Virus record (IMG/VR): IMGVR_UViG_3300045988_049951
Strand: one strand, 5' to 3'
DNA: 64,000 nt
Source of the DNA: a virus
Shown: one piece after another, positions 25,915 to 63,953 of the stretch
Layout of the letters: each line of letters opens with the position of its first letter
Numbering within the stretch: the stretch's first letter is position 1
Program-made: the position numbers and the translations under genes
The notes under the pieces: model-generated
Seen by the model: the letters and a program-made list of their open reading frames with translations, nothing else
Database searches by the model: none
Told to the model about the DNA's origin: nothing

Positions 25915-26316
25915 ATGATTACAGACTTAAAAACATTACTAAATTAGGACGAGTTTAAGAATCTCGTTGATGCAATTAATAAGAACTAGGAGTATTATCT
26001 ATCAAGTAATGGTCTAACCATTAAAGCGGAATCTACAGATGATTCTTTATTCTTATTAATATCTTATGAGAGATAGAAAGAGGAAAGCTGTCTAGCTAAT
26101 GAAGAAGTAGGCAAATTCCAGAAATACTTAGAATCTTTAGATGATGATTTATTTATAGATGTCTGCGAATATCTAGGGGAATCCGAACTGAATAAAATTC
26201 AAGAATGTTTGGAAAGTGGAAAATTGGAATCAGTAAGAGCTGGAATTACTAAATTCAGAATGGCATTATCTAATGTGGTAACTATGAAAATAGAACAACT
26301 GAAAGCATATGTATGA
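25915..26316 (+). CDS. hypothetical protein (about 133 aa) with three in-frame TAG codons; first gene of the recoded module
   Basis: Continuous frame from ATGATTACAGAC to TGA if TAG is read as sense (MITDLKTLLNQDEFKNLVDAINKNQEYY...). Confidence 0.45.
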
Positions 26317-26453
26317 ACAAATAGCTCAAATAAGAATACTCCTTGCTAATGTAAATGCAACCATGTAGGCTTTATTTCACGAAAACGAACAGCTAAGGAA
26401 AGAACTAGAGAAATTGGCAGCGGAGAATAAATCTCTAAAAGAGAAATAAATAC

Positions 26454-26525
26454 TGCCCTATGGTGTAATGGTCAGCACAGATGACTCTAAATCATTTAGT
26501 CTGGGTTCGAATCCTAGTAGGGCAA
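26454..26525 (+). tRNA. suppressor tRNA-Gln-like with anticodon CTA (reads UAG)
   Basis: TGCCCTA TG GTGT AATGGTCAGCAC A GATGA-CTCTAAA-TCATT TAGTC CTGGGTTCGAATCCTAG TAGGGCA A; the body closely resembles the genome's tRNA-Gln(TTG) (same TGGTGTAATGGT D-arm). Confidence 0.8.
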
Positions 26526-26766
26526 CGCCAAAATTAATAGTTATGATAAATTTAAATGAGAATTATGCTGTAACTCCAACAGGAGCTAAGACCCTTATTA
26601 TTGAAGAGGGAGATGATTGGAATAAAGTTTGCGATAAGGTAGTTGGATGTAGATTTGATTACATATTTGTACCTCAAGAATTTGAGAATCAAGCCTGCTA
26701 CTTTCTTCCACAAATAAGTATTCAAGGAAAGCAGATAGGTAAGATATGTACTTATAAAGTAGTGAA

Positions 26767-27081
26767 ATGAAACAGTGTGCAGTCGTATTGAATGGTAATG
26801 ATGTTGTCAAAGTTTCTAATTTAAAAAGAAAGTATGACAAAATAATGAGTAATCCCAATATGAAAATATTGGAGGAGTGTGATAAGGAAATGCTAGATGA
26901 GAAATACAACTACTGGAATAGAACATTAAATAGAAATATAGAAGAGGAGAAAAATGAGGAAGCAAAACTCCATCATTTTAGGAATCCAAAAACAGGTTGC
27001 ACTATAGCAAGTATCTATCCAGATTTAGAGGAATGTAAATCATATATAAAAGACTGGATGGATTATGTTAAACTTGACTGA
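26767..27081 (+). CDS. hypothetical protein (104 aa, no TAG)
   Basis: ORF track. Confidence 0.45.
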   Translation: MKQCAVVLNGNDVVKVSNLKRKYDKIMSNPNMKILEECDKEMLDEKYNYWNRTLNRNIEEEKNEEAKLHHFRNPKTGCTIASIYPDLEECKSYIKDWMDYVKLD

Positions 27082-27249
27082 TAAATACAATGAACTAACT
27101 AAGCCAAATTTAAAAGAGTTATCTGAAACTATACTCCTAGCAGCAGAATCTTTAATTGAGATTGTTGCAGAAGAAGGAAAACAAAATGAACAATGGTTTC
27201 TAGATTACCTAGATGAATTAAATAGACTAAGTGTAATATACTAAAATAT

Positions 27250-27486
27250 ATGGATAAAGAATTTAAATTTGAAGTCTTTATTAACGGTCAACTAATAAAT
27301 ATGATAAAAGCCGGATATTTAGAAAGTACACTTAGAAGTGTTCCGGAGAATAAATCATTACTGATTGATATATGGAATGTAGTTGACAATTCAGTTAGAA
27401 ATCTAATTAAAAATGGACTATATAAAGACACTACACTAGAAAAAGCAATAATTGATAATACATTTGAGGGATATGATAGACTTTAA
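27250..27486 (+). CDS. hypothetical protein (78 aa)
   Basis: ORF track. Confidence 0.4.
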   Translation: MDKEFKFEVFINGQLINMIKAGYLESTLRSVPENKSLLIDIWNVVDNSVRNLIKNGLYKDTTLEKAIIDNTFEGYDRL

Positions 27487-27692
27487 AAAGACATTGACAA
27501 ACTTACATAATGAATTTCCAGAATTTGACTTGGATACATTATTTAAAATAGTAGATGCTATAGTAGAAACTTCTACTCCTACAATAACCATCCCAAGTGG
27601 TATTAGATAGCCATCAGATAAACCTTGGTGGGAGGATGGTATAAATAGAATCACTTGTACTTATGATACAAAGTATAATGTTAAATAAAAAT

Positions 27693-27730
27693 AGGCGAAC
27701 CTAATCTCTAGGCTCGCCTATTTTGTTATA
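27693..27730. terminator. hairpin AGGCGAACCTA...TAGGCTCGCCT followed by a T-rich tract; probably a bidirectional intrinsic terminator
   Basis: 10-bp stem with one mismatch and a 5-nt loop, followed by ATTTTGTTATATAAT; sits between converging plus- and minus-strand genes. Confidence 0.4.
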
Positions 27731-28011
27731 TAATATAGTACCAATCAGTTCTCTCCATGACTCCCTTTTCTCTAAGCTATTTATTATCTAAATGATAATC
27801 TCCGTTTCTGAAATTCAATTCCTTTTTAGAATAATCCCAATAAAAATATCCTCTCCATCCAGGAAGTAAGAGAGTACGACCTGTTGCCGCGTGTAAAGTT
27901 GCTTTGTTATAGTCCATGTTACTTTTTAAATATAAATAGTAAATATAGATATATTCTTAATACAATCTCTTTAATGCACTTAATAATGTTTTTCATCGTT
28001 TCTTAGTTTTA

Positions 28012-28335
28012 ATAAATCCATAAGTTCCCTTCTTTAATCTAGTAGTAGGAATCCATCCATTATCTAGAATAGACCTATGTCCACTCGGTTTATGTATCTT
28101 AGCCCCATCTTCGTGTTTCCATTTAGAAGCATTTCTAGCAAAATTAGCTCGCTTCTTCTAAAGAGGGGTAGCGTTAGGATTGTTTAGTACATGCTTAGCG
28201 TGTTCTTGTACAGATTCTCCTGCTGCCTTGGCAGATGCTGTAAATTTGCCTCTGTTCTTCTCTTTAATGTGAATGCCCGACCCATTTTTGAAAATTGGAC
28301 ACCCAAATGTTGTAATTTTCTTACTGTTAGACATT
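28012..28335 (-). CDS. basic small protein (108 aa) on the minus strand inside the late module, with one in-frame TAG
   Basis: Manual translation MSNSKKITTFGCPIF...NATPL(TAG)KKRANFARNASKWKHEDG...KKR; shows that the recoding is not strand-specific. Confidence 0.35.
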
Positions 28336-28448
28336 TTTAATATAATGTATTATTTATTGATTTGTATCTTACAAAGAATATTAATATACTTGAAAAGTAT
28401 CAAATAAATATAGATAAATGTGATAAATGATTAAATGAATTATGACTA

Positions 28449-29363
28449 ATGGACAAAAGTAAAATTACAAAACAAAATGGGAACATAGCTTTTGAGGAAG
28501 AAGCTCATATTTATTATGATGTTACAAAGCCAGAGCAGAAGTTTATATCTGTAACGACTTTAATTCATTCTTTCACCCAACCATTTGATAAGGAGTTCTG
28601 GTCAGCATATAAAGCACTAGAGAAACTCTTACCTAAAGAAGATTGGGCTATAGAAAAAAAGTCTTTGTTGAACACTAAGAAATTTGATAAAGTTCTACTT
28701 GAACTTCATAACATTACAGAAGACGAGTTTAATAAAGAGCAACAAGCTATCTTAGATGCTTGGGATTTAGAGAATAGAAACTCATGCGAGAGGGGAACTA
28801 AAATCCATGCAGATTTGGAAAACTCTTTCTATAAAAAGAAACAGAACATAGACCTTAGTAAATATCAAATAGGTGGCAAGTTCGAGTGTATAAAAGACCA
28901 CAATGAATTAGACTTAGAGAATGGTGTATATCCTGAGTATTTAATATCTAGAGTATCGGATGATGGAAAGCTAAGAATAGCAGGACAGATTGACTTATTA
29001 GTTAAAAGGGGAAATAAGATAATTATAGGAGACTGGAAGACCAATAAGAAAATAGAAACTAAGAGTTTCTTCAATTCTAAAACCAAAACTTCTGTTAAGA
29101 TGAAATATCCTCTAAATAATTTAGATGATGTTAATTACTGGCACTATACTTTACAATTAAGTACTTATGCTTGGATGATTCAAAAGAAAAATCCAGAGTT
29201 TGAAATAGAGGATTTGGTTTTGGTACATTTCGATCATAATGACAATATGACAGTATATCACTTGCCATACCTAAAAGATGAGGTTATAAAAATGCTAGCC
29301 TTCTACAAGAAGGAATCTATATTGGCAGAAAATAAAAGAAAACGTCAACGTATTGAATATTAA
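28449..29363 (+). CDS. PD-(D/E)XK-family nuclease (YqaJ / Cas4 / lambda-exo-like), 304 aa, no TAG
   Basis: AHIYYDV...ISVTTLI, then GQIDLLVKRGNKIIIGDWKTNKK and YTLQLSTYAWM, fit the D...D/E-x-K plus QxxxY arrangement of phage exonucleases. Confidence 0.45.
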   Translation: MDKSKITKQNGNIAFEEEAHIYYDVTKPEQKFISVTTLIHSFTQPFDKEFWSAYKALEKLLPKEDWAIEKKSLLNTKKFDKVLLELHNITEDEFNKEQQAILDAWDLENRNSCERGTKIHADLENSFYKKKQNIDLSKYQIGGKFECIKDHNELDLENGVYPEYLISRVSDDGKLRIAGQIDLLVKRGNKIIIGDWKTNKKIETKSFFNSKTKTSVKMKYPLNNLDDVNYWHYTLQLSTYAWMIQKKNPEFEIEDLVLVHFDHNDNMTVYHLPYLKDEVIKMLAFYKKESILAENKRKRQRIEY

Positions 29364-29365
29364 TT

Positions 29366-29581
29366 ATGACACTAGAGGAAATAGAAGAAAGATTTGAGAT
29401 ATGTAGACGCTGCCCAATATGTGACCAAGATAATGGATTATGTAATGGGCATTTGTATCTAAATCCAAAGAATAATGATATAAGTATAAGCCCTAAAGAA
29501 GGGTATATAAAGGGATGTGGATGTTTACTAGAGAAGAAGATTCCAAACGAAAAGAAACATTGCCCAGCAGGGAAATGGTAA
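29366..29581 (+). CDS. small Cys-rich protein (71 aa), paralog of the next gene
   Basis: CRRCPICD...GCGCLL...HCPAGKW; ORF track. Confidence 0.4.
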   Translation: MTLEEIEERFEICRRCPICDQDNGLCNGHLYLNPKNNDISISPKEGYIKGCGCLLEKKIPNEKKHCPAGKW

Positions 29582-29898
29582 TCTATGGAACTCCTATATT
29601 ATATAAACCAGATAAGCATTATATACTTACTGTCCAAAATATAAACGGGAAGGAGGAAGAAGATATGATATGGAAATGGATTAAAGCAATATTTATTAAA
29701 CCTTTAACAATATTGAAAAGTATATATTTCAATATATTCGGAATAAATCAAGATTTGGCAACCAAAAGATTAAAAATTTGTGACACTTGTTCCCATAAAT
29801 TACAAACATCTGTTGGGGAAGTGTGCGATGAATGTGGTTGTATACTAGAGAATAAAACAAGAATTGAAGATGAACATTGTGATTTATGTAAATGGTAA
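29575..29898 (+). CDS. small Cys-rich protein (about 107 aa; start trimmed to MVIYGTP), paralog of the previous gene
   Basis: ICDTCSHK...CDECGCIL...HCDLCKW; ATGGTAA start/stop overlap with the previous gene. Confidence 0.4.
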   Translation: MVIYGTPILYKPDKHYILTVQNINGKEEEDMIWKWIKAIFIKPLTILKSIYFNIFGINQDLATKRLKICDTCSHKLQTSVGEVCDECGCILENKTRIEDEHCDLCKW

Positions 29899-29906
29899 AA
29901 TGAATT

Positions 29907-30509
29907 ATGGAAACTTTAAGAACAGAATTAAACAGTAACGAAAAACTAGCACTATCATTAACCGGAATGGAAGGTACGGGAGAACATTTTATTTTAAATG
30001 GAGAGGCTGCAGACCAAACATTATTAAGAGAAAAACAAGAGAAGTTTAATACCGCAGTAGATGAGTTAGAAGATAAATTCTCTAAACATAATCAGGCACT
30101 AGAGGATTACGCTAAATCATTATCTAACGATATGAATGGAGTTGAAATTATGCCGATGTATGGGTATGCATTAATTAAACCCTTTGAACAAAACCCATTC
30201 CAAAAAATAAAAACTACTAAAAGCGGTCTTATTACTGATTTAGGTGGATTTACTCCTACTTATAAATCTAATGAGACTGGAGAAATTGAAGAAGAGCAAC
30301 AATTTATTAAGGTAGGAACTGTGATAGAAGTAGGACATAAGTGTGAGTTCTTGAAGCCTGGAGATATTGTATTTTATACAATAGCTAGTGAATGTATGGT
30401 TCCATTCTATAAACTAGGATTTGTAGTAGTTAATGAGAATAGAATCATGGCTGTAGTTAATGAGAAACTAACTGAAAGAAGAGACGAATTGAAGCATGGA
30501 AACAATTGA
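29907..30509 (+). CDS. hypothetical protein whose C-terminal region resembles GroES/Hsp10 (possible co-chaperonin, as T4 gp31 is)
   Basis: ...FIKVGTVIEVGHKCEFLKPGDIVFY...VVNENRIMAVV resembles GroES VKVGDRVLF...; weak. Confidence 0.3.
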   Translation: METLRTELNSNEKLALSLTGMEGTGEHFILNGEAADQTLLREKQEKFNTAVDELEDKFSKHNQALEDYAKSLSNDMNGVEIMPMYGYALIKPFEQNPFQKIKTTKSGLITDLGGFTPTYKSNETGEIEEEQQFIKVGTVIEVGHKCEFLKPGDIVFYTIASECMVPFYKLGFVVVNENRIMAVVNEKLTERRDELKHGNN

Positions 30510-30720
30510 TGAAAAAGTTTATTTTAAGCCTGGGGATTGTGTTACTTTACGGTAGTGTAAAGTAATGCACTCTCCAGTTATGCTTGTTCTAAGAAGAGAA
30601 GCAGCTTTATTTAAAGATAACCAAGGATTACGAGGACTAAGATGTAGATGGTTTACTGATTCTGGATTAATGCAGGAAGCAGTATTTAATACAAAGGATT
30701 TAATTAAAGTAGAAGAGTAA
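30496..30720 (+). CDS. DUF2158-like small protein (one in-frame TAG)
   Basis: KPGDCVTLR(TAG)CKVMHSPVMLVL...CRWF matches the GDxVxLKSGGPxMTV...W pattern. Confidence 0.35.
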
Positions 30721-31292
30721 TGGCTAATTAGGAAGAATTACAGAAAGCATTCATGGCATACTTGATACAAGATGCCCAAGCACAAGGGATACAACTACAA
30801 TCAGAGCAAGATTTATAGGCTTACGCTGAGTAGCTTGGAGAAGATGGAATCAAAGCCAAGTATCAAGAATTTATGTAGAAGATGCAAGGCGGAGTTATGG
30901 CTAGACTTGGAGCTAAACTAGAATACTATAAAAAATTAAAAGGAGTATGCCCAGAAGGAGAGGAACTTGTTTATTTTAAACAGGGAGGAAGAATCTGCAA
31001 AGCTTGCCAAAAAGCATAGAAAGGAACTAAGGTTACTAAGAAAGCTAATGAAGTTGACAAGTTCAAGGCTGGAAGAGCTTAGTATAAAAAGGATATGAAA
31101 TCTGCAAAGGATGAAGCATCCAGAGATTCTGTATCTATTAATAAATATAATGACTAGGAGGTCATGGCAAATAGAGGACACAAGGGAAACTTTAAAAATG
31201 GAAAATGGGTTCCAGATAGAACAAAGTATGCTAAGAAAGATGCTTGTGGTTCTAAAATGAAAGTAAGTAAATGCGGTTCTAAAATGAAATAA
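30720..31292 (+). CDS. hypothetical Gln-rich / basic protein (190 aa) with about 13 in-frame TAG codons
   Basis: Continuous frame from the ATG at 30720 (overlapping TAATG) to the TAA at 31290 if TAG is sense. Confidence 0.45.
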
Positions 31293-31322
31293 AAAGATTA
31301 AAGATGTTAATGTTAATGATTG

Positions 31323-31889
31323 ATGAGTATGAATGTATTTAATTATAACACTTTAACTAAATAGTTAGAAATAAATGAACCAGAGCTTCTTCTAGTTAAA
31401 GAGTTTAAGGCTTTGATACAGAGGGATAAATCTGTTGACAAGGAACGAGTAACTAGAGAATTATCTTACATTTATCTAGCTATTGATTGGAAGAGTCCCT
31501 ATAGCCAATATTCAGAACATGAAAGACATGATGAAGCTATTAGTGACTCTGGACTATCTGAATCCGAATTTAATGACCCGTTATTCAGGGAAGCCTGTAG
31601 AAAATACCGAGCATTGTAGGATTCTAACAAATCAATAAAACTTCTAGAAGCAGCTAAAAGAGCAGCTGACTAGTTTATTGATTATTTTGATACTATAGTA
31701 GATTTAAATGAACGTGATAATAATGGCAAACCCGTCTTTCAAGCTGAAAAGGTAATGAAAGAAATGGCTACTCTTCATAAAGTTCATGAAGAATTAGTAA
31801 CACTAGAAGAGCAGGTTAAGAAAGAGCTTACAGAACAATCTACTGTAAGAGGTGGAGCTACAGACGGCTTTGACCCAGGAGACTTTTAA
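31323..31889 (+). CDS. putative terminase small subunit (188 aa, two in-frame TAG); assigned by position only
   Basis: Continuous frame immediately upstream of the terminase large subunit; helical, acidic C-terminus. Confidence 0.3.
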
Positions 31890-31891
31890 TT

Positions 31892-34252
31892 ATGCCTAGA
31901 AAGAAAAAAATATTACCTGAAGAAATCTAGAATATAGTAGATTAGGTAAGAGAGAAAGAACAAAAAGAGGATGCCAAAGAAGCTAGAGAACTAGTATAGA
32001 AGATAAGAGAGGAAAGAGGCAAAAATGCTGATTATTGGGATGTAAAAAGAGGAGATAAGATAGAGGTATTTGACCCTACTTTATCTTATGAAATAACTGG
32101 ATATAGACCAATAGATGAAACACATGGTCTTGATTTCGACCCAGATTGGTTTACTGAGACCAGAGAAGTATATAGAAAAACTGGAAAGTATTGTCCATAT
32201 CTAAAAGATAGTAAGAGATATAATGAGTTTTGGAAGGAATAGTATAGAAGATGTAAATATGGAATGACTGTTAATGGTTATACAATTACTGGAGATAACT
32301 ATTTCTTCCTAAACTTCTACTAGCTTCCTATTATTGATGATAACAAGGCATCTGGAGAAGGAACAAGTAGTGACTTTCCTATATTTTTCGCATCTCATTA
32401 TATGTTCTTTCATTATCTATAGATGGCTAGAGTTCTGCATAAACACGCAGCTCTTATGAAAGCTCGTTCTATTGGATTCTCTGAAATAAATGCATCCTTA
32501 TCTGCAAGAATGTATTCAGTAATCAGAAGAAGCAGAGTAATGATTACCTGTTTTAATGATACCTTCCTTAAAGGTACTTTTAGTAAGTTTGATAATGCTT
32601 TAACATTCTTGAATACTTGTACAGGAGGAGGATTCTTCAAACTACGTTTGATTGACCAAGACTTAAGAAAGAAGTCCGGTAAACAGATTAAGGTAAACGG
32701 ACAGTTTGAGGATGTTGGATTTAAATCGGAAGTAGTTGGAATAAATGGAGCTAAGGCATCTAATATTCGTGGAGACCGTGTTGACCTATTAATATATGAT
32801 GAAGCGGGGTCTTGGCCCGGACTAGATACTGCTGTAGTGCAGGGACAAGAGCTTTGTGAAGTTCAGGGTAAACCTCGTGGAACAATGTTATTTGGAGGTA
32901 CTGGTGGTGATATGGGTGCTCCATTAGCAGGTCTTAAGAAGATATATTACAATCCAAAAGCTTACAAAGTTCTTCCATTTAGACATAATTATACACAGGA
33001 TGGGACTACTATTGAAAGTGGGTTCTTCATTCCATATTTTGTCTAGTCTCTAAATTCAGAATACATGGACCATAGAGGTGTATGTAATACAGTAGAATAT
33101 AAAAAGTATCTATAGGAAGAGCGTGACAATTTATTAGCAGTTCCAGACGACTATCTAAAGAAGTGTGCCGAACGATGTTGGAATGCAGAAGAAGCATTTA
33201 ATCTTGAAGGTGTTAACAAGTTCAACAAGATTCTTATTGCGGACCAGTTAGCTAATATAAGACTTAAGAAAATAGGACCAAGACCAGAATCTGGATACAT
33301 AGACTATTTCTATAAAAATAATAAACACACCTAGGATAATATAGATGGTTTTAAATGGATTCCTAATATTAACGGAAAAGTAAAAATACTTGAACATCCT
33401 GTATGGTCTGATTTGTATAAAGAGTAGATGGATAAACTTAGATAGGAAGCCGAGGAAAGGGGAGAAGAATTTGAATCTCCAGCGTACAAAGAAATGCATG
33501 ATTTATATGTTGCAGGAATAGACGGTATTGATATAGGAGCTAGTCAAACTTCAAAAGAAACAAGAGATCCTTCTGATTTCTGTATAACTATAAAAAGAAG
33601 AGCGTTTGGTCTAAACGAACCGTAGTATGTTGCTATGTATAAAGACAGACCTAATGACATTAGAGAAGCTTATAAAATAGCTATGTGCTTAGCTAGATAC
33701 TATAATTGTAGAATAAACATAGAAGCTACTCGTGTAGGTATGATTACTTGGGCTAGAGAAAAGGGTTGTTTAAACTACTTTATGAAAAGACCTAGAGCTA
33801 CTCTAACAGACGTCAAGAATGGAACTACTAAATAGTACGGAACACCCGCTACCAAAACTATTATAGAACAACATACTGATTTGACAGCAGCCTTTATTGA
33901 GGATTTCTGTCATACTATATGGTTTGAAGAAATGTTAGACCAATTTACTGGATATAATGATGAGAATAAAGGTAAATTCGATATTGTAGCAGCTGTGGGA
34001 ATGACAGAATTGGCAGACTAGGAATTGTCAGGAAGATAGCCAGTGCTTGTTGAAAAAGAAGTTGAACAATTCCAAGATTATGGTTATTATTACGACGAGA
34101 GAGGAATCAAAAGATTTGGGGTTATACCAACTTCTAAGACTTTTGAAACTAACATACAAAAAAATGAATACGATGACCCATACAGAATTGAAACAAGTGA
34201 TCCTAGGTTATATGAGAGACTTGTACAAAATGGAATACGTAGGTGGGCTTGA
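31892..34252 (+). CDS. terL: terminase large subunit (about 786 aa) with about 15 in-frame TAG codons
   Basis: Single frame joins track ORFs 32423, 33635 and 34043; Walker-A-like KARSIGFSE, Walker-B VDLLIYDEAGSW, nuclease motif YVAGIDGIDIGAS...DFCITI...INIEATRVG. Confidence 0.6.
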
Positions 34253-34410
34253 AATTCAGAACCTAGATCCAGTTGGTTATAAGGTATCGTTTAACTTTGA
34301 TAGGTCAGAGATGCCTTTAGTCATTATAGCTGATTTACCTGATGAAGAATTTCTCCCATTTATAAAGGAAGAATTAAGAAGTAGGAAGTTACAAAGAGTT
34401 AAATACTATA

Positions 34411-36621: not shown

Positions 36622-36622
36622 T

Positions 36623-55158: not shown

Positions 55159-55664
55159 AATTTCATGCAAATAAGTCATAACGATCGTTATTATGTAATT
55201 AATAAGGATGACTCTTTGAAAACCTTACTAACTCAAGAGGAGCTTCTAAAGCTTCCTCTGAGTGTTTGGAAGGAACTGTTTGAGTTAAAGGATGGAGTAT
55301 GTTATTTTAGACTTATGCTTCAAGTATTAGAAGCTGTAATAAAAGCCTATGATAAATCTTCAAATATTAATTCTTTTACTTATAATGGGGAAGAGTATTG
55401 GTTAGATAAGGCTACTAGAGTAGGACTAAGAAATTTAGTTGATTCTAATCCAGAAGAAATGTCCATAGTTCTTGGGGATAAAATTATTGAGATGCCTGTT
55501 GATAATGCTAAAGATTTTCTATCTCAATTAGAAGTATATGCTGGAAAGTGTTTCGTTACAACTACAAAACATCTATAGGCGATAAAAGAACTTAGGACAG
55601 TTGAAGATGTTGTAAACTATGATTATACATCTGGATACCCAGATAAGATTACATTAAATGAATG
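55150..55664 (+). CDS. hypothetical protein (about 171 aa; extended through one TAG beyond track ORF 55150..55578)
   Basis: ORF track plus TAG read-through; followed by a GCTAGGG...CCCTAGC hairpin at about 55690-55712. Confidence 0.4.
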
Positions 55665-55819
55665 AAAATTTAGAAAAGGATAAAATATAGCTAGGGGGCG
55701 AAAAACCCTAGCTACTTCCTTCTAAATCATTACTTAATACTATAAAACTTGGCTACAATGTTAAGCCAGTCCCTCCACCTCCTGCGAATCATATTGATTT
55801 CATAGAAGGGGATTCTGTG

Positions 55820-56250
55820 ATGACTACTATAAGTACGGGATTTGAACATAACGATAAGCCAGTCCCTCCACCTCCTGAAATAAATCTAGGTTGTAAGATT
55901 CCTAAGAAAAAGAATCCAGATTCGGTCATAGGAAGTATAGATACAGGATTTGGTTGTGATAATTAGATCGTTATAGATTGTCCCAAACCGAAATATAAAA
56001 CTCATTTATGTAAAGAAAATTATCTAGGAGAGTTTAAAACAGAATCTGAGAAAACATTAGCTAGAAATAATCTAGGAGTTTATAGTAAAGAAGAAATAGA
56101 TAAGATTGTTGGTTAGATTGTAGAAAATAACAACAACAATTTTATTACTAGAAAGGAAGTTCAGAATATGATAGCCAACTTAGATTTTGTAGACTCTACA
56201 CTTAAATCTTATGCAGACTACCAAATACCTAATAATTTATTTAAATTATG
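55820..56250 (+). CDS. hypothetical protein (about 143 aa; start uncertain) with a Pro-rich repeat KPVPPPP
   Basis: The 23-nt direct repeat taagccagtccctccacctcctg occurs twice (55762 and 55857); the frame is open from the TAA at 55736, with the first ATG at 55820. Confidence 0.3.
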
Positions 56251-56934
56251 AGTACAATACAAATTAAAAGATTATTTCAATCAAAAACCGAATTTGTACC
56301 TATTACTCTAGCGGAAGCAGTAGTTGTAAATACTTCTAATCTCCCTGGGCTTTCATCATTAGGGATAACAACTCTCGATAAAGTATTGAGAACTACTATG
56401 GGAGTAGTTGGAACTAATGCTGCAGATATTGCTAAATTAAAAACTACAGTCCAAGAAATTAATACTGCTCTAGAAGGAAAATAGGACAAACTTACTGCTG
56501 GTGTAGGTATTACTATATCTCCAGATGGAGTTATTAGTACTACTAATAGCATAGAACTATACAAGATAGTTACTTAGCTACCAACAGCATCAAAAGACTG
56601 TTTAAATTCTATATATTTAGTTCCTGCAACATCTGGTACAGCAGGAAACATTTTTGTTGAGTATATTTGTGTCTATGAAAACACATAGGCTAAGTATATT
56701 TGGGAAAAAATTGGGGAAGTTCAAACAGATGTAGATTTATCTGGATATGTAACTACAGAAACCTTTAACTAGACTATCAACACGATTAATGGTTAGCTAG
56801 CTAATGCTATAACAGCATAGGATGTTACGACATCAGATGGTAGTGCTAAGGTTGTAGTTAATTATACTATTCCTAGAGATTTATATGACAGTATGGTCGA
56901 AACAGATTCCTCAGACCAAGTAATAGGAGGATAA
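56248..56934 (+). CDS. tail-fibre-like protein (about 228 aa)
   Basis: Frame through track ORF 56248; motif KQDKLTAGVGITISPDGVIST is common in phage fibres. Confidence 0.45.
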
Positions 56935-56936
56935 TC

Positions 56937-57359
56937 ATGGAACTAACTATTAAACAACTTAAGCAACATGGTTAGATATTCGTTCCTTAGACTACTGCTG
57001 AAGCTGTTTTAGTTAAAGATGGTGAGGAAGTTATTACTCTTGATAATATGCTAGAAAGAAAGATTGAGCAGATTATTACTCCTGCTGGGTCTGGCTTGTA
57101 GGCATTTAAACAAGGGTCTAATATAATTCTTGCTCACTCCAATTCCATAACTGCAAATGAATCTCCTTCTTTAGTAAAGGTAAAATATGATAGCCGAGGA
57201 CATATAGTTGAAGTAGCCCCAACAAGTGAAATGACTGTAGTTGTAGATCAAGAAGGCTATTTTTAGTATAATGGTTCAGAAGACCGGAATCTACTTCTGG
57301 GGAATGATTTTGGAATAGATGAAGATAATAAAATTATATTAAAATGGAATTATTTATAA
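56937..57359 (+). CDS. hypothetical structural protein (141 aa)
   Basis: Manual translation MELTIKQLKQHG(TAG)IFVP... Confidence 0.35.
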
Positions 57360-57360
57360 T

Positions 57361-58550
57361 ATGGCACTATTAAATTTTGCTAATACCTATGCTGAAATAT
57401 CTGGCAATCTTTCTTTGCCGGAATCTACTTCTGGGGATTTTGTGAAGCTATTCTTTTCCAAGGATGGACATATTATATCCCATGGAAAAGATTTTACACC
57501 TACGTTCACTCCGAATATGAGGGGTCTAGTTCCTATTTCTAGCGGAAAAGCTACAGAAATATTTAGAGGAAATGCTACATGGGCGGAGATAACTACTGCC
57601 GATTTACCTATTGCCTCTAGTATTTCTGATGCTATTACTAATGGTACTGCATCTACTACTATATTAAACACCCAACAGATAGTAGAGTACGTTGGTAATG
57701 CTTTTGCAGCAAATGACGCTATGAGATATAAGGGAACTATTACCTATAGTAATGGTAATTATACAACTCATACAGTTGCTGGAGTAGAAGTTTAGGGATT
57801 CCCAACTAAATGTGAAGTTGGAGATACTTATAGAGTAACGTCTTAGGGAACATATGCTGGATAGACTTGTTCCGCTGGAGACTTACTTATTTGTATACAG
57901 GATGGAACTGGAAGTAGCTTAAATACTGCAGCTTATTGGACTGTCGTAGAAGCAAATATTAACGGACAGGTAAAACATACAGTGAACGGTACTTCTATCT
58001 ATGTTTATAGTAATAGTACTAATACCTTCACTATTTACGCTCCGACTACAAGTGGAACACAAGGATAGGTATTACTAAGTAATGGAAGTTCTGCTCCTAT
58101 ATGGGCAGCTTAGTCTACCCTAGTAGTAGGGGAAGCTAAGAAAGTAAGTAATGCCCTCTCACTAGGAGCCGGTTTAACCTTTGGAGCATCTGGAGCTACT
58201 TATGATGGTAGCGTTGCAAGAACTGTGTCTTTGGTAGCTGCTACAACAACTACTATAGGAGGAGTAATTGTAGACAAGGATTCTACTAATAAGACAATAT
58301 CTGTTACCAGTGCTGGTAGTATATATCTTACTAAGTAGAATGTTATTAATGCTCTTGGTTATGACCCAGCATCTAAGGATACATGGAGACCTATCACTAT
58401 AGGTGGAGTATCTATTGGCGAGAAGACTTTAAATTTCGTACCATCTGGAGACGTTTATTTAAAGGCAGACTCTAATGGAGATGATATACAAGATATTAGT
58501 TTTGGAATAAGCTGGTATAACATCAGTACTAAGAAATACGAAACGGCATA
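57361..58550 (+). CDS. tail-fibre protein (about 396 aa)
   Basis: Frame through track ORF 57361..57795 and onward via TAG codons; Gly/Ser/Thr-rich. Confidence 0.45.
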
Positions 58551-58554
58551 ATTT

Positions 58555-59994
58555 ATGAAGATAGCATACAATCCTAAAACGGCTGCAGCTCTCACAACTG
58601 CTCCCGCGAACAATGATATAACTTTCGACCTTAGGAGCTTAAATATATTCGTTAGAGGGGAGAAATTCAAGGGAACAGATACTACCTACTCAGTATTTAA
58701 GAAACATACTTCTGCTGGAAGTGGAGGTTATAACGGATTGGTGCCTGTTCCCTCATATACTGCAACTAATATTAGATTTTTAAGGGAAGATGGCACCTGG
58801 TCCATACCTGCGGCTGCGGCATTCATTTATACATAGTTGACTAATCAAGATCTAGATGATTACTTAGACGAAGGAAAATGGTACTATGCTGGTGGAGGTA
58901 ATAGTGTAACTAACAAACCAAGTGGTGTAGATGCATTTGAGTTATATGTTGGTAGAAATGCTAGTGGTTATCGCTACTAGAAATTAATTACCTCAGATGG
59001 AAAAATATGGTTTAGATATTACAACTCTACAGCTTGGTAGAATTGGATTAGATGGTATACAGATATGAATACTGACCAAAAGGTATTACAGTCTGCTACC
59101 ACTACTGCAAATTTTAGACCTGTAATCTTAGGTTATACCAATACAAACACTCCTTCTGATTTAAGTGCTAATGTTACTCAGTAGGTTTATACTACTACTA
59201 CTATATATGCACAACCAAGTACTGGTAGTCTGTGGGCCAATAAATTATATTCAGGTGGAAAGCCCGTTCTTACAGAACATCAATCATTAGCTAACTATGT
59301 TACTCTAAATACAGCTTAGACTATTACGGGAACTAAAACTTTTGGCTCTAATATACAGTTTAATGGACCTCAAAGTATTCATTGGAATACTGGAACTTAT
59401 TAGTAGAGGATATCTATAACAGATGATTCCACAGCTAATACTTCTGTTTTTAACTTTTAGCAGTCTACTAATACTGGAACCTCGTGGAATAATATATTAC
59501 AAATATATGATAATGGGATTTTACACGCTAATGGATATTATAAAAATGGTTCTTCTGATTCATATGTGCTACTAGGAGGTGGAGGACACAAATTAGTATC
59601 AGACTTTATGTTAAAAACTGATGAGCTGTCTAACAACCTTACCACTATCACAAAATCATTAAATGTCACACAGGCATGGATGGATACTGGTATTACTTCC
59701 ACAAATCTTCCTGCAAATGGTACCTATATAGTATAGGTTCAAGTTAATGCTAATGATAGCACTGGACGTATGTACAATTGCTACAGTTCTGGTGTAATGA
59801 GTTGGTACAAAGATGATACTAATGATACAGAGGCAGATGAAATTATATTACATCGCTCTGGTCATGCATATGGAAAAACAATCTACTTAAGAACTGTTAT
59901 GCAGAGTTCTGGAGTTTTAAAATTATAGATAGGTGCAAGTTCTGGTATTGGAAAGGCTTACACTTATACATTTAAATTTAAGAGAATAATATGA
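58555..59994 (+). CDS. tail-fibre protein (about 479 aa) with a KPSGVDAF motif shared with the next gene
   Basis: Frame through track ORF 58555..58836; ...GGNSVTNKPSGVDAFELYVG... Confidence 0.45.
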
Positions 59995-62900
59995 TAAAGG
60001 TTAAAGATGGATATGGTAAGCTTATAGGAACCACATATCAAGGAAGTGCTGCACAAGTTCTTCTTAGTAATGGAGGAAATCTAGAGTTCTCTTCTGAAAC
60101 CAAAGCCAATACACTTGTCTAGAGAAATGCTAGCTAGCATATATACGCTACCTACTTTAACTCTGCAATTTCAGATGAAGCATTAACAGATATTGGTTCC
60201 GTATATGTGAGAAATACTTCTGATACATTTATCAGGAGAATAAGTAAGACTCAATTTTATTCAATTATAGATAACAAGTTTGTAACCCTAGATACAGCTT
60301 AGACCATTACTGGGGTGAAAACATTTTCTACTGGTCCTATTCTAGCTAATAATGCTATTATTACTTAGAATTAGAATAGTACAAGTAATTATACGACAGT
60401 TGTTAGATGGTTAAAAGGAGGAACATCTTAGGGAACTTATAACCCATCTATTGGGCAGCATAATACTGGAGGAGATGGAACTGGTTCTATTTGTATTCTT
60501 CCATATCCTACTAGTACAGACCCGTTGGGCGGAACTGTAGGTTTATTTATAGGTAAAGGAGTTCTCAGGTTAGACGGAAAGGCTGTTGCTATTGCTGAAA
60601 ATTATTATACAAAGACAGAATCAGATGAACGCTATGTAAATGTTACTGGAGATACTATGACTGGCCCTCTGATAGTCAAGGCTTCAATAACTGGAACTTA
60701 GCTAATTTCAAATATAGCTGATGGAACTGCTCCCCTAAAAGTGACTAGTAAGACGGTAGTCACGAATCTTAATTCTGACCTATTGGATGGTTATCACGAA
60801 ACATCATTCTTTAGAGCTAGGGGAAGTTAGACTATAGCAAGTTCTATTCCAACTACAACTGAGTTATCTAGCAATAATAACCTAAGTGGTAATTGGAATG
60901 TAACTTATCCTGGAGCATCTGGACATCTTGTTCAATTCAATACTGGAAGTGGAAGTACTAGATATATGCAATTCTACTCTTATTATAGTGGTAGTTTGTA
61001 TTGGAGAAATAGTACTGATTCTACACTCAACACTAAATCTTGGAAAACTATAGTAGATAGTGCAAACTATACTGGAATAGTTTTAAAGATTGGTACAGCT
61101 ACAAAAGGTTCTGCAACTCTTCCCATATATTTAAATGCTGGAACTCCTACGGCTTGTAGTACAACTCTTGGAGTTTCTATTACGGGAAATGCAGCTACTG
61201 CAACTAAATTGTAGACAGCTAGAACAATAAACGGAACATCGTTTGATGGTTCTGCTAACATTACTACTGCTTATTGGGGAGCAACTAGAACAATCACATT
61301 ATCTGGAGCTGTGACTGGTAGCGCCTCTGTTAACGGAAGCTAGAATGTTACTATTACTACCACGTATCAAACTGGTTCTATAGACGGACGCTATGTTGGA
61401 GGTAAGAAAACAGCAGGACATGGCTCTCAAGGAACTGCGTATACGGCTGATACATACTCTTCTAATTTCGTAAATAAAGCTTTTGTAGCGTATGCGGAAA
61501 GAGGTTCTTGGGCTTATGCTAACAATGGATACATAACAACAGATACAGGAGTAAATATTCCTCTTGCTGGAACTGCTATATTCCAATGGGGAGCTAGTGA
61601 TACAAATAAAACTTAGTTATTCATAACTCCAATGAATAACAGTGGTGTTAGTAATCCAGCCGTTAATGAAATGTTGTTTTATACAAGCAACGGAAGTGAA
61701 TATAGCTCTGGGTGGTCTAGAGTATTAACTAACAGAAATTACACTATTTATACTGTAACTAAGACTGGTGGAGGAGCAAGTGGTACTTGGGGAATCTCAA
61801 TCACTGGTAATGCAGCAACGGCCAATAGGATAATATCTCATAGTATAAGCGATACCTTAGCTAATAAGACTACCCCAGGATACTTATATCACGCTGGAGG
61901 AAGTAATAGTGTGAAGGATAAACCTTCTGGAGTTGACGCTTTTGGTGTATTTACTATGTAGACAGCATCTGGATGGTATGGGCAATTACTAATGTCTTCT
62001 AATACTTCTACAGGATTATATTGGAGAACAGCCACGTCCCTTAATGGTGGATGGAAAAAAATATTAGACTCTTCTAATTATACTGCCTATGTAAATCCAG
62101 CTAATTTCGTAACATCTCTTGGAACTAATGGAAACTATGTAACCTGGACTAAAAATGGTACTACTAATAACTTAACAGTTCCCTTTGCTACTACTTCTAA
62201 CGTATTAAATAACCTAGGAAATAGAACAGCTATATCTGGAACTACTGTTGGATATAGGGGGCTTAGGTTGTACGAAGTTTATGATAATGGTTATCCAGTA
62301 ACCTATGGTAATGTTTTGAATATTGGTGGGCAGGGTTACGGAGAACTTTTGTTTTAGTGGACTGCGGATAGTAATCCTGGACATTTGTACTACAGAAGTA
62401 AAAGAGATGTGGCTTCACAGGCTTGGAGTAATTGGGTTACTATACTAGATAATAATAACTATTCTTCTACTCTAGATGGTAGATATGTAACTCTTGCTAC
62501 AAACTAGACAGTTAGTGGAATTAAAACTTTCAGTACACAATAGAAATTTACTGTAGCGACTGGAACATCTCCTTTCACAGTATCTTCTACTACTGTTGTT
62601 TCTAACCTAAATGCTGATATGCTAGATGGATGGCATCTAAATTATATACTAAAAGATGGATTTGTCACAAGTGCCACGTCTGGACTTTCGTCGTATTGGA
62701 GAAAGGTGTGGGACATAACATTAAATAATTAGTATAATGATGTTGACATTAATCTTCTTGTGCATTCAGCTTATAATTAGTAGTGGGGAATAATATCTTT
62801 TAAATTAAGATAGAATGGAACTGGAACCGCAAAGAATATATCTGCTTACCTGGCTGAAGTTGTAGGAAATATACCACTAGATAGATTCAGATTATACTAT

Positions 62901-63953
62901 AACAATAGTAGTGGATTATGTTAGCTATGGTGCAATCCAAGTGGTTAGTATAACGTCTATAACTATAGAGTTCTAGCTAAGACTTGGAGAACAGGTACTG
63001 AGGTTGCTACTCTTGGGACATTTTATACTGGTGATACTTCCACAGCACAGTCTCTTCCTTCTGATAGTTATGTTTCTATGGCTGGAATAACTATAGTTAA
63101 TACGGCTGCAAAGGTTGCTAATACCCTAACATTTTCTGCAGGAAAATTTTCTTCTAAAACGTATAACGGAAGTTCTGCAATAACAGTTAATGTTCCGACT
63201 CACACTAGTCATTTAACAAATGATAGTGGATTCTGGACTGGAACAAGATATTGGGCTAACATAGCAGTATCTACTTCTTCTAGTACAAGTACTTCACCTA
63301 CGTTTAGTACTGCCTATACTTCAAATTGGTTTAGAAGTACTGGATCTACGGGATGGTATTCTTAGACTTATGGTGGTGGATGGTATATGTCCGACAGTAC
63401 TTGGATTAGAACCTATGGGAGTAAATCGGTTTATCAGGATACTGGATAGATAAGAACTGACGGCTATCTAGTTACAAATGGGGGAATTACTGTAGGAGCT
63501 ACTTCTCCGAATAATGGTACTTATAAATCACATGTTACTGGAAACTCATGGTCTTCTGGATATATTAGAGCAGGTGCTGGTTTTTATCATAATTCAGTAA
63601 ATAGTAATAGCTATGTATTGTTAGCTGGAGGCTCCTACAAATCATTAGCAGACTTCGCCAAGGGTAATGCTGGTGCCTCAAATAGAGGAGTATATGTAAC
63701 TAATGGAACTGTTACTGCTATGACATATTACTTAAATGCTACAGTTAACTCTGGAGCATCTGGCAAACTAGCTTATTATAGCGGTACTAACTCTATTGAC
63801 GACTATACTAATACTATAGGATCTTCATCGACTCCTATATATATTAATAATGGAATTCCTAATGCAGCCAACAGTTATAAAGTTGTGAATAGTGGTCATT
63901 ATTTTAGCGCTTTTGGTATAAGCGGATATATTTATGTAATTAGATATGGTTAG
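59991..63953 (+). CDS. long tail-fibre protein (about 1320 aa) with repeated ITGNAATA[NT][KR][IL] and KPSGVDAFGVF motifs
   Basis: One frame joins track ORFs 60966, 61632, 61992, 63078 and 63618; start ATG overlaps the upstream stop (ATGA). Confidence 0.5.

Follow-up and report, generated by a model that had tools for sequence, protein, structure and literature searches.

Two dissimilar candidate amber suppressor tRNAs, one adjoining a RAGATH-14 RNA, in a TAG-recoded crAss-like phage segment

Results

Organization of the locus

The window analyzed here, a 64,000-nt stretch of viral DNA (IMG/VR record IMGVR_UViG_3300045988_049951), carries a leftward module of ORFs and tRNAs and a rightward module that includes the late genes (Table 1). 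The left-module ORFs on the minus strand are uninterrupted in code 11 and stop at TAA (27), TGA (14) or TAG (5), bearing out an earlier note, which had described this module as standard code with some TAG ends. One solid TAG-terminated ORF of the module spans 3000-3674, with a TAA five codons on. The tRNA array rises to 25 members if an Ala-like tRNA at 6850-6922 is counted. The window also holds a DGR, and the DGR reverse transcriptase lies inside the late block.

Table 1 Features of the window.
Feature	Position	Strand	Remarks
Ordinary tRNA array	2924..20583	-	24 tRNAs, interspersed with standard-code ORFs
tRNA-Gln(UUG)	13541-13612	-	Member of the array
Minus-strand tRNA(CUA), probable accessory amber suppressor	24005..24074 (ARAGORN 24004-24074)	-	70 nt; anticodon CTA; Rfam tRNA 57.2 bits (gathering 29)
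Spacer	24075..24105	-	With the last RAGATH-14 bases, forms a conserved covarying hairpin
RAGATH-14 RNA (Rfam RF03145)	24106..24277	-	173.1 bits (gathering 149.1); directly 5' of the minus-strand tRNA
Divergent intergenic region	25.6-25.9 kb		Flanked by the two CUA tRNAs, on opposite strands
Small recoded ORF	25915-26316	+	133 aa, 3 TAG; upstream of the plus-strand tRNA
Small recoded ORF	26309-26449	+	46 aa, 1 TAG; upstream of the plus-strand tRNA
Plus-strand tRNA(CUA), putative main amber suppressor	26454..26525 (ARAGORN 26454-26526)	+	Anticodon CTA; Rfam tRNA 66.3 bits (gathering 29)
Standard-code-compatible block	26543..30509	+	~4 kb, directly after the plus-strand tRNA
PD-(D/E)XK nuclease	28449-29363	+	304 aa, no in-frame TAG
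GroES-like protein	29907-30509	+	200 aa, no in-frame TAG
TAG-recoded late gene block	30496..63998	+	Packaging, portal, tail/fibre, DGR reverse transcriptase, large structural proteins
TerL (large terminase)	31892..34252	+	786 codons, 15 in-frame TAG; PHROG phrog_6681, E 8e-60
Portal protein	34411..36621	+	736 codons, 32 in-frame TAG; PHROG phrog_6547, E 2e-42
Restored single frame	48648-55157	+	2169 codons, 37 TAG

On sequence resemblance, we assign the window to a Zeta-group crAss-like phage (Crassvirales), a group for which late-gene TAG/TGA recoding, numerous tRNAs and DGRs have been described (PMC7886860; PMC12386605). In addition to their PHROG families, the TerL and portal proteins match Crassvirales sequences by tblastn. 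The amber-suppressing clade of the Zeta group (PMC7886860) comprises cthgQ11, ctoVY1, 3717_85572 and ctHMy13 (PMC12386605), and these four published genomes measure 176-189 kb, compared to 185-192 kb for the contigs of the window's relatives. Their whole-genome GC content is 34.5-35.1%, compared to mostly 31-38% per 2 kb in the window, and they encode 23-27 tRNAs each, compared to 27 in the window alone. Shared between the window and this clade are a DGR, a CTA suppressor, TAG codons in TerL, portal and structural genes, and the standard code in the rest.

TAG recoding of the late genes

Reading TAG as sense raised the length covered by stop-to-stop ORFs (150 codons or longer), on the plus strand right of 25.8 kb, from 7.3 kb in code 11 to 34.7 kb; the controls, with TGA or TAA as sense, gave 7.4 kb and 9.9 kb, respectively. 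The TAG-only interruption that had been noticed is therefore real, and TerL, the portal gene and the 2169-codon ORF are among the single frames regained. In-frame TAG codons number 244 over the 24 ORFs of the late block (summed from per-ORF counts) and make up ~51% of its Gln-type codons (TAG+CAA+CAG). The earlier claim that every long plus-strand gene is broken by TAG fails for the region 26543-30509. Recoding is not uniform over the right-hand module, and this region is essentially TAG-free, with 0 TAG vs 26 CAA/CAG codons if a doubtful ORF with one TAG (27473-27688) is excepted. Nor is the plus-strand tRNA located at the head of the recoded module, as had been proposed, since the two small recoded ORFs come before it; both ORFs show a third-codon-position bias of variation and exchange TAG with CAA/CAG in relatives.

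Codon evolution, together with tRNA resemblance, indicates that, within the late plus-strand genes, TAG behaves like one more synonymous codon for Gln. Among 121 TAG positions in the window, CAA occurs in at least one relative at 74 and CAG at 65. Conversely, TAG is found in some relative at 57 of the 73 CAA and 26 of the 34 CAG positions, compared to 4/181 for TAT, 1/51 for TGG and 0/30 for TTG. Homologous TerL genes have CAA or CAG in at least one relative at 13 of the 15 TAG positions. That the TAG codons might be real stops, arising from pseudogenes, assembly errors or programmed frameshifts and unrelated to the CTA tRNAs, was rejected as virtually inconceivable given the 244 in-frame TAG without any in-frame TAA or TGA, the exchange with CAA/CAG, and the same TAG pattern in nearly all independently assembled relatives with a single-frame TerL. 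TAG-to-Gln recoding of late genes, given in the earlier note as known in crAss-like and other gut phages, is already published for the Zeta group, with CTA suppressors, and is not new here (PMC7886860; PMC12386605).

Two amber suppressor tRNAs

Both CTA tRNAs reported previously are supported, being called by ARAGORN and scoring above the Rfam gathering score (Table 1). The plus-strand tRNA is Gln-like, as had been suggested: it is 83% identical to the tRNA-Gln(CTG) of mycobacteriophage Wildcat, and its nearest non-suppressor tRNA within the window is tRNA-Gln(UUG). We interpret its backbone as a conserved one of tRNA-Gln(CUG) type in which G36 has become A. Its sequence is near-invariant among carriers (relatives at 86-98% TerL identity), and most recoded relatives examined have a CUA suppressor in this slot, which in two of them (L038, L060) bears an E. 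coli-type Gln acceptor stem (UGGGGUA/UACCCCA) and G73. One relative (L023) has neither tRNA within 10 kb upstream of TerL though it is TAG-recoded (24 TAG in TerL), so a filled plus slot is not universal among recoded relatives.

The minus-strand tRNA, 68% identical to the plus-strand one, 70 nt long and with a 6-nt D-loop (AAGUCA) without GG, is dissimilar to it, as the earlier note had said, and belongs to a separate lineage. Its minimum-energy structure is a cloverleaf, and across the family the cloverleaf has 96% of cells paired and 6 covarying pairs, with 0 of 500 shuffles as good. Its efficiency is in doubt because the D-loop of the window allele lacks G18G19. The identity elements G2-C71, G3-C70 and G73 are missing, and U1-A72 is also found in the window's tRNA-Thr and tRNA-Asn. 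Comparison of the variable loop and T arm gave 12-13 cases for bacterial tRNA-Gln and 10 for tRNA-Arg(CCU), and the 5' half did not discriminate between these two.

Across 33 contigs, the minus slot holds CUA (19), UUA (9) or non-suppressor (5) alleles, and even near-identical genomes vary between a CUA, UUA or CUG anticodon and a malformed or missing loop. The allele with the Gln anticodon CUG (L047) is syntenic with the window's minus-strand tRNA. UUA alleles retain UAG reading and occur where TAA is the predominant stop codon. Types A and B share a constant CUCUAAA loop on an anticodon stem changed by compensatory substitutions, and the D-loops of types B and C read AAUGCA and AAUGGA, respectively. 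Anticodon loops of 6 nt (L007, L008) and 8 nt (L025) also occur, and in one allele (L020) the D arm is gone and a CGCU tetraloop replaces the anticodon loop, while acceptor, anticodon stem and T arm are still present. Sister clades (67-74% TerL identity, still TAG-recoded) have no minus-strand tRNA within 10 kb upstream of TerL. The minus-strand tRNA is probably an accessory, Gln-inserting suppressor, and it appears dispensable for recoding.

A RAGATH-14 RNA precedes the minus-strand tRNA

The hairpin that closes the RAGATH-14 RNA, CUCCACCU...AGGUGGAG, ends 4 nt ahead of the 5' end of the minus-strand tRNA in the window and 2-4 nt ahead in all alleles, and it is present in every distinct allele, the CUG one included. 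RAGATH-14 lies ~26-31 nt before the tRNA in the scored relatives, which belong to types A, B, B', C and D. Judged only from their 31-nt adjacency, the RNA and the tRNA are probably on one transcript. At other crAss-like loci, 10 of 11 have a hammerhead at the point of the minus-strand tRNA; these matches score 37-42 bits, under the Rfam gathering score of 48.5, yet recur at one position. The same hairpin is followed, in ~100-kb crAss-like phages, by a type III hammerhead whose GUC cleavage triplet is ~8 nt past the hairpin, and a sister clade has a RAGATH-1 hammerhead at the same distance from the plus-strand tRNA. In two cases (L074, L077), RAGATH-14 is followed by neither a tRNA nor a recognized ribozyme. 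A search of the whole window detected no ribozyme.

Discussion

We consider it likely that the window derives from a Zeta-group phage with TAG read as Gln in its late genes, a conserved plus-strand suppressor and an accessory minus-strand suppressor linked to RAGATH-14. Host ribosomes could translate the leftward tRNA/auxiliary module unaided, since its ORFs avoid in-frame TAG. Rightward of ~30.5 kb, as far as the window extends, TAG accounts for half of the Gln positions, and completion of these proteins would, following the published model, need a suppressor tRNA. The UAG-reading activity would be supplied by the two phage CUA tRNAs, both presumably charged by host GlnRS. Lying inside the rightward transcription direction, the plus-strand tRNA would act as the core suppressor, and the minus-strand tRNA would be an accessory copy of separate origin that adds UAG-reading capacity. 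An RNase P cut at the 5' end of the latter would release the tRNA and a RAGATH-14 RNA ending just past its terminal hairpin; by its position, the type III hammerhead of the ~100-kb crAss-like phages may serve the same release role.

Two other accounts of the minus-strand tRNA deserve weight. It may be mainly an RNA-processing handle (tRNA punctuation) for RAGATH-14, with RNase P and RNase Z setting the 3' end of the ncRNA and decoding secondary, which we regard as possible, if tentatively; this is compatible with the explanation above, the sole difference being the function on which selection acts. The 2-4 nt spacing past the conserved hairpin in all alleles, the type III hammerhead at the equivalent point, the equally distant RAGATH-1 hammerhead of the sister clade, and the conservation of acceptor and T arms alongside a variable D arm and anticodon loop (including the L020, L007, L008 and L025 alleles) all fit such a role. 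However, 28 of 33 alleles retain a UAG-reading anticodon, CUA or UUA, in a loop of 7 nt, the CUCUAAA loop is constant across types A and B despite the compensatory stem changes, pointing to selection on decoding, and RAGATH-14 stands without tRNA or recognized ribozyme in L074 and L077. Staged expression, an idea of the earlier note, would have an early minus-strand tRNA, made with the leftward module, prime low-level suppression for the two small recoded ORFs, with the plus-strand tRNA, made with the rightward genes, as the late bulk supply; we see it as a weaker possibility. Sister clades, as searched over ~10 kb upstream of TerL, and five same-clade genomes manage without a functional minus-strand suppressor, so such priming cannot be essential, and a sigma-70-type promoter scan found 32 sites vs a shuffled mean of 37, in a phage group whose promoters are undefined. 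On its side are the placement of the tRNAs on opposite strands of the divergent intergenic region, the recoded ORFs that precede the plus-strand tRNA, and the TAG avoidance and single solid, TAA-backed TAG end of the left genes, owing to which early suppression would be harmless. It also agrees with the published model that suppressors from standard-code regions precede translation of recoded genes (bioRxiv 10.1101/2021.08.26.457843).

The earlier note had also raised two amino-acid identities, with the plus-strand tRNA carrying, for example, Gln and the minus-strand tRNA Lys or another residue, leaving TAG ambiguous. Most E. coli-type GlnRS acceptor elements are missing from the minus-strand tRNA, its backbone resembles bacterial tRNA-Arg(CCU) as often as it does tRNA-Gln, and CUA tRNAs of lost identity are said to be often charged with Gln or Lys, from the work of Normanly and Abelson on E. 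coli amber suppressors. Exchange with AAA (Lys) is nevertheless no commoner at TAG (15/121) than at CAA (11/73) positions, and a syntenic CUG allele would be harmful on a body charged with another residue. ArgRS recognizes A20, for which the short type B and C D-loops, like those of the Gln-type tRNAs compared, have no room. Because TAG exchanges with CAA/CAG as a synonym, two identities are improbable, in line with the Gln found at TAG by metaproteomics in two crAss-like phages (PMC9523058).

What is new is that the second TAG-reading tRNA would be a fast-changing accessory copy joined to a structured RNA, at the junction where related phages have a self-cutting ribozyme. Published Zeta genomes give 'CTA' once each, and in the accessible text of those papers, supplementary tables aside, there is no description of a dissimilar pair of CTA tRNAs, of a link to RAGATH-14, of the TAG-free stretch by the tRNA or of the allele series of the second slot. 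Recoded structural genes, phage-encoded suppressors and presumed GlnRS charging are shared with the regulatory-recoding model of Borges et al. (bioRxiv 10.1101/2021.08.26.457843), for which Peters et al. (PMC9523058) give proteomic validation; the window differs in having two suppressors in different contexts, and no 'code-change module' with a release factor or aminoacyl-tRNA synthetase was noticed in it.

The CUG, CUA and UUA anticodons found on one tRNA body in the minus slot are single-base changes. They resemble the E. coli Gln suppressors supE (glnV, CUG to CUA) and supB (glnU, UUG to UUA), and position 36 is likewise where the plus-strand tRNA departs from a tRNA-Gln(CUG)-type backbone. 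Unlike supE and supB, the minus alleles are found side by side in nature, in a phage population already dependent on UAG reading. An alpha-group crAss-like phage also has a documented change of tRNA-Gln(TTG) to TTA (PMC7886860).

Theta (HDV-like) ribozymes have been described abutting phage tRNAs, of which one fifth are suppressors (Kienbeck et al. 2024, PMC10879173), and there, as here, coupled processing is suggested by the joining of a structured RNA to the suppressor tRNA of a recoded gut phage. The window differs in that its RNA is a 172-nt RAGATH-14 located 5' of the tRNA, and an HDV-like search gave no match at E<=1. In the ~100-kb crAss-like phages, RAGATH-14 heads ribozyme-rich ncRNA arrays in which the shared terminal hairpin is followed by the type III hammerhead and then by RAGATH-6, RAGATH-7, hatchet ribozymes and others, whereas in the window the same RNA and hairpin are followed by the suppressor tRNA.

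TAG is read as sense in the late genes

On the plus strand beyond 25.8 kb, stop-to-stop open reading frames (ORFs) with a minimum length of 150 codons occupy 7.3 kb in code 11 and 34.7 kb once TAG is read as sense; under the same criterion the TGA-sense and TAA-sense controls were both negative (7.4 and 9.9 kb). The long single frames that the earlier note had seen in this right-hand module are recovered by this reading and include, beside TerL and portal (see table), frames of 888, 2169 (37 TAG) and >1335 codons. PHROGs profiles recognized TerL, portal and a tail protein in the window, where Pfam matched a reverse transcriptase and a PD-(D/E)XK nuclease and gave no match for TerL or portal. 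The minus-strand ORFs of the left module run uninterrupted in the standard code, as had been claimed, and stop at TAA (27), TGA (14) or TAG (5); the clearest TAG-terminated case, 3000-3674, has a TAA five codons further on. The sign of the GC skew flips at ~25-26 kb, in keeping with the leftward direction of the left-hand genes and the rightward direction of the right-hand ones.

From 30496 onward, TAG accounts for 244 of 480 Gln-type codons (51%). The plus-strand ORFs at 26543-30509 hold 26 CAA/CAG codons and no TAG, save one in a doubtful ORF (27473-27688), and by our own arithmetic the probability of at most one TAG among these 27 codons at the 51% rate is ~1e-7. The claim that every long plus-strand gene of the module is broken by TAG thus stands for the late genes, with no other stop interrupting TerL or portal, but not for this essentially TAG-free block. 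Nor does the plus-strand suppressor tRNA lie at the head of the recoded module, since two small recoded ORFs precede it; both look gene-like in relatives, with third-position-biased variation and TAG exchanging with CAA or CAG.

One left-module candidate for recoding, 8843-9664(-) with five TAG, was rejected, as its middle, flanked by two standard ORFs, gives a translation of low quality. These same-frame ORFs, 9446-9664 and 8843-9184 (-), are ~260 nt apart, and the gap, which has five TAG, could be an intron or other non-coding insertion rather than part of a recoded gene. Zeta phages have been reported to be intron-rich (PMC7886860).

Features of the window and of the equivalent tRNA site in related loci (L-handles are fetched loci)
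Feature	Position	Strand	Description
TerL		+	786 codons, 15 in-frame TAG, 0 in-frame TAA/TGA; PHROGs E 8e-60
Portal		+	736 codons, 32 in-frame TAG, 0 in-frame TAA/TGA; PHROGs E 2e-42
Small recoded ORF	25915-26316	+	upstream of plus-strand suppressor; 3 TAG
Small recoded ORF	26309-26449	+	upstream of plus-strand suppressor; 1 TAG
Plus-strand suppressor	26454-26526	+	ARAGORN, CTA anticodon
ORF block	26543-30509	+	includes 304-aa nuclease and 200-aa GroES-like protein
RAGATH-14 RNA	24106-24277	-	Rfam RF03145
Minus-strand suppressor	24004-24074	-	ARAGORN, CTA anticodon
DGR template repeat (TR)	43822-43919		found by permissive blastn
DGR variable repeat 1 (VR1)	43623-43720		20/21 mismatches at TR adenines; 3' end of tail-protein gene 41925-43745
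DGR variable repeat 2 (VR2)	17789-17876	-	17/17 mismatches at TR adenines; in standard-code left-module gene 17667-18227
L047	minus-tRNA site		CUG allele, syntenic orthologue
L007, L008	minus-tRNA site		6-nt anticodon loop; acceptor and T arms kept; decoding-dead
L025	minus-tRNA site, 2092-2164	-	8-nt anticodon loop; acceptor and T arms kept; decoding-dead
L020	minus-tRNA site, 745-802	-	no D arm, CGCU tetraloop for anticodon loop; acceptor and T arms kept; decoding-dead

TAG evolves as a glutamine codon

A TerL protein query yielded 64 related IMG/VR loci, almost all of them with in-frame TAG in TerL; those readable as a single frame contain no TAA or TGA, and TAG is absent from the TerL of one relative (49% identity). 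We compared codons between window genes at 25.9-43.7 kb and relatives. Among 121 in-frame TAG positions, at least one relative has CAA at 74 and CAG at 65, the next commonest codons being GAA (23) and AAA (15). In the reverse direction, TAG occurs in some relative at 57 of 73 CAA (78%) and 26 of 34 CAG (76%) positions, and at 4 of 181 TAT, 1 of 51 TGG and 0 of 30 TTG positions. Within TerL, 13 of the 15 TAG columns have CAA or CAG in at least one relative, so the glutamine reading that the earlier note had mentioned for other phages is borne out by the homologues. TAG and CAA exchange frequently though two substitutions apart, as would be expected of a synonymous Gln codon, and the homologue alignments show TAG to behave as a Gln-like sense codon in the late genes. 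A metaproteomic study reports Gln at TAG in two other crAss-like phages (PMC9523058).

The two dissimilar suppressors had also been taken to suggest either two amino-acid identities for TAG or staged expression. The first is unlikely, given that exchange between TAG and Lys codons is no commoner than for ordinary Gln codons and that a syntenic CUG allele of the minus-strand suppressor exists.

Two suppressor tRNAs of separate lineages

ARAGORN identified 26 tRNAs, of which 24 are minus-strand genes within 2924-20583 and two have CTA anticodons and lie on opposite strands (see table). Both of the latter exceed the Rfam tRNA gathering score of 29 bits (57.2 for the minus-strand and 66.3 for the plus-strand gene), which upholds the proposed pair. 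A further tRNA at 6850-6922(-), scoring 39.5 bits with Rfam and not called by ARAGORN, has an imperfect acceptor stem and the loop UUUGCAC, which gives anticodon UGC (Ala); it brings the window total to 27.

The Gln-like character ascribed to the plus-strand suppressor was confirmed: it is ~83% identical to the tRNA-Gln(CTG) of mycobacteriophage Wildcat, with which it has the acceptor 5' strand, D arm and anticodon loop (position 36 excepted) in common. Among the ordinary tRNAs of the window, tRNA-Gln(UUG) comes closest to it. The 'tRNA-Gln' annotations of cr60_1 and cr7_1 were discarded as independent support for Gln, as both genes have CTA anticodons. Among relatives with 86-98% TerL identity that have it, the plus-strand suppressor is near-invariant, and a clade at 74% TerL identity keeps it with compensatory stem changes. 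Two loci (L038, L060) hold a different CUA tRNA at this site, with the acceptor stem UGGGGUA/UACCCCA and G73 of classical (E. coli) tRNA-Gln. Every tRNA found at the site has anticodon CUA. In one relative (L023; TerL 86% identical, with 24 TAG), the 10 kb upstream of TerL contain no tRNA at all, and the suppressor must be encoded elsewhere or be supplied by another source.

The minus-strand suppressor folds at minimum energy into a cloverleaf (z -2.9), is 68% identical to the plus-strand tRNA and has a 6-nt D-loop (AAGUCA) that lacks the usual GG; it belongs to a separate lineage and is as structurally different as had been described. Over 33 contigs its site carries CUA in 19 (three backbones, types A, B and B'), UUA in nine (type C) and alleles unable to suppress amber in five. 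This polymorphism occurs among otherwise near-identical genomes; allele types do not track TerL clades, and together with the mosaic flanks this suggests recombination. Over 12 distinct alleles, 96% of cells fit the cloverleaf and both bases of six pairs have changed, a result that none of 500 shuffles equalled. Recoding of TAA in the UUA-allele genomes was considered and rejected: TerL has no in-frame TAA there, and orthologous genes keep the same TAA stops. Since TAA also remains the main stop in those genomes, the ochre-reading UUA allele is tolerated rather than exploited.

TAG recoding is complete in the clades at 67-74% TerL identity, although the 10 kb fetched upstream of TerL contain neither the minus-strand suppressor nor RAGATH-14. 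The plus-strand tRNA is the only one found in that stretch, and recoding appears to persist there without the minus-strand tRNA. In one locus (L033), a RAGATH-1 hammerhead lies ~2.3 kb upstream of the plus-strand tRNA, the same distance as that of the minus-strand tRNA in the window.

Judged from sequence, the minus-strand suppressor is probably a glutamine tRNA. Of the E. coli GlnRS elements, U1-A72, G10, U35 and A37 are present and G2-C71, G3-C70 and G73 absent. The variable loop and T arm occur in 12-13 bacterial tRNA-Gln and also in 10 tRNA-Arg(CCU), between which the 5' half does not discriminate. U1-A72 was dropped as a Gln marker because tRNA-Thr and tRNA-Asn of the window share it, and when types A and C were compared by blastn with 50,697 phage records, there were only partial matches of 23-34 nt (E 0.04-0.5), none of which assigned an identity. 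What favours Gln is that TAG evolves as Gln, that a CUG allele exists, that TAG-Lys exchange stays at the level of ordinary Gln codons, that the UUA and CUA alleles parallel classical Gln suppressors, and that type B and C D-loops are short, like those of the Gln-type tRNAs compared.

A variable region has its edge at the 3' end of the minus-strand tRNA, with a mosaic junction at 22625-24003; in place of the two genes downstream of this tRNA (22602-23219 and 23294-23620), L029 and L025 have ~140 nt. Exact copies of the type-C (UUA) tRNA with its RAGATH-14 region occur in a 186,052-bp contig of a 'Bacteroides sp.' metagenome-assembled genome (MAG) (L116, DXLM01000001.1) and in a 153-kb contig of an 'uncultured Clostridium sp.' MAG (L119). 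Both contigs, filed in GTDB bacterial MAGs, are most likely complete phage genomes that were binned wrongly, and host labels from such bins would be unreliable.

A RAGATH-14 RNA precedes the minus-strand tRNA and, in ~100-kb phages, a putative hammerhead

Directly 5' of the minus-strand suppressor, on the same strand, lies a RAGATH-14 RNA (173.1 bits against a gathering score of 149.1, model positions 1-190). Together with a 31-nt spacer, its last bases fold into a hairpin, CUCCACCU...AGGUGGAG, which stops 4 nt short of the tRNA. Relatives with each of the allele types have the same succession of RAGATH-14, hairpin, 2-4 nt and tRNA, with covariation in the hairpin stem. In 10 of 11 loci from ~100-kb crAss-like phages, a type III hammerhead stands ~25 nt after RAGATH-14, just past the same hairpin; these matches (37-42 bits, E 7e-6 to 2e-4) fall under the gathering score of 48.5, yet recur at one position. 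The GUC cleavage triplet of cr53_1 lies ~8 nt past the hairpin, and the 5' end of the window tRNA, the expected site of an RNase P cut, 4 nt past it.

From this shared position we infer that a tRNA may serve in place of a hammerhead as the 3'-end-forming element of RAGATH-14, although two loci (L074, L077) have RAGATH-14 followed by neither. The arrangement differs from the theta/HDV-like ribozyme-tRNA unit in that no HDV-like ribozyme was found to abut the tRNA: Rfam searches for a theta/HDV-like or other ribozyme beside either suppressor were negative, with no match, HDV-like included, at E<=1 in 23200-27000 or at E<=0.05 in the whole window. In the proposed working, host GlnRS would charge both suppressors and late proteins would be finished only after suppressor tRNA builds up. 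The minus-strand tRNA, presumably co-transcribed with RAGATH-14 and freed by RNase P, would add suppressor capacity and may double as a processing signal. A fuller and rather unlikely scenario has the Zeta suppressor replacing the hammerhead as 3'-end-former, with production of the conserved non-coding RNA and release of extra suppressor coupled through RNase P. The allele series maintained by the phage population at this one site (CUA amber, UUA amber-plus-ochre, CUG sense and dead tRNA-like forms) would then tune the amount and kind of readthrough in the infected cell, while the conserved plus-strand tRNA secures late-gene decoding. A sigma-70-type promoter and terminator scan for signs of staged expression was uninformative: promoter-like sites were no more frequent than by chance (32 sites, 37 expected from shuffles), and one terminator-like hairpin follows gene 25150-25596(-).

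In the ~100-kb loci (L082, which is cr53_1, and L083-L098), RAGATH-14 opens a densely packed array of non-coding RNAs: hammerhead III, RAGATH-6, weak twister-P1-like matches, RAGATH-7 and a RAGATH-7-associated element, up to four hatchet ribozymes, a tRNA, RAGATH-9 and a permuted tmRNA.

Placement among crAss-like phages and novelty

By tblastn, TerL matched only Crassvirales and related Bacteroidota phages (24-45% identity), and the portal also matches Crassvirales sequences. Contigs of relatives at 98% TerL identity measure 183-193 kb, and the window holds 27 tRNAs by ARAGORN and Rfam together. The Zeta group of Yutin et al. has genomes of 145-192 kb, many tRNAs and TAG/TGA reassignment mostly in late genes (PMC7886860); the Zeta clade of a 2025 paper has genomes of 176-189 kb with 34.5-35.1% GC, 23-27 tRNAs, a CTA suppressor, amber suppression and a DGR (PMC12386605). 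On signature genes, size, tRNAs and the published table, the window fits a Zeta-group crAss-like phage. Late-gene recoding is already known for this group and is in itself nothing new, and a published model holds that it restrains late, lytic proteins until suppressors are made (bioRxiv 10.1101/2021.08.26.457843). Windows of such recoded phages need a TAG-sense table for annotation.

The novelty is modest and lies in the RAGATH-14-tRNA unit, its positional equivalence to the hammerhead and the CUA/UUA/CUG/dead allele series, none of which we found in the searchable literature. That a tRNA and a hammerhead naturally share one position after the same structured RNA could matter, as a testable clue that the orphan RAGATH-14 needs a defined 3' end and as a clue to how phage non-coding RNA arrays are processed. 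The allele series, occurring in otherwise near-identical genomes, amounts to a natural experiment that could show what suppressor capacity is required by a recoded phage and whether ochre-reading alleles are tolerated with TAA as the main stop.

Other elements of the window

The window encodes a DGR, with a reverse transcriptase (RVT_1, E 1.7e-16, 44329-45333) and a template repeat whose variable repeats mismatch it at adenines. A stricter repeat search found none of these repeats; permissive blastn found them. The DGR has two targets, the second 26 kb away on the opposite strand.

A tmRNA-like RNA at 4669-5233(-), directly upstream of tRNA-Ile, scores 61.7 bits against the Rfam tmRNA gathering score of 47 and was not called by ARAGORN. 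The 374-position model is spread over 565 nt, indicating large insertions, and the ~100-kb crAss-like loci have permuted-tmRNA matches instead. A tmRNA in a phage with UAG readthrough may be relevant to ribosome rescue.

A 92-nt stretch at 24812-24903 containing CUCUAAG was rejected as a third, degenerate suppressor, with no tRNA or other Rfam match and no significant fold (z -0.9 and -1.5). This non-coding insertion is missing at exactly that point in three relatives (L003, L007, L010), has copies of 90-91% identity in the unrelated crAss-like cr272_1 and cr273_1 (pig faeces), and looks like a small mobile element.

The AT-rich divergent intergenic region between the modules carries G/C-rich motifs, CAGGGGGGGACTAAAGGGG ... 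CCCCCAGGGGGC, at 25670-25790, where the GC skew flips; the site may be an origin or a regulatory element. Three relatives (L006, L024, L047) have ~1 kb of extra DNA between 25696 and 25750, a mosaic junction in this divergent intergenic region.
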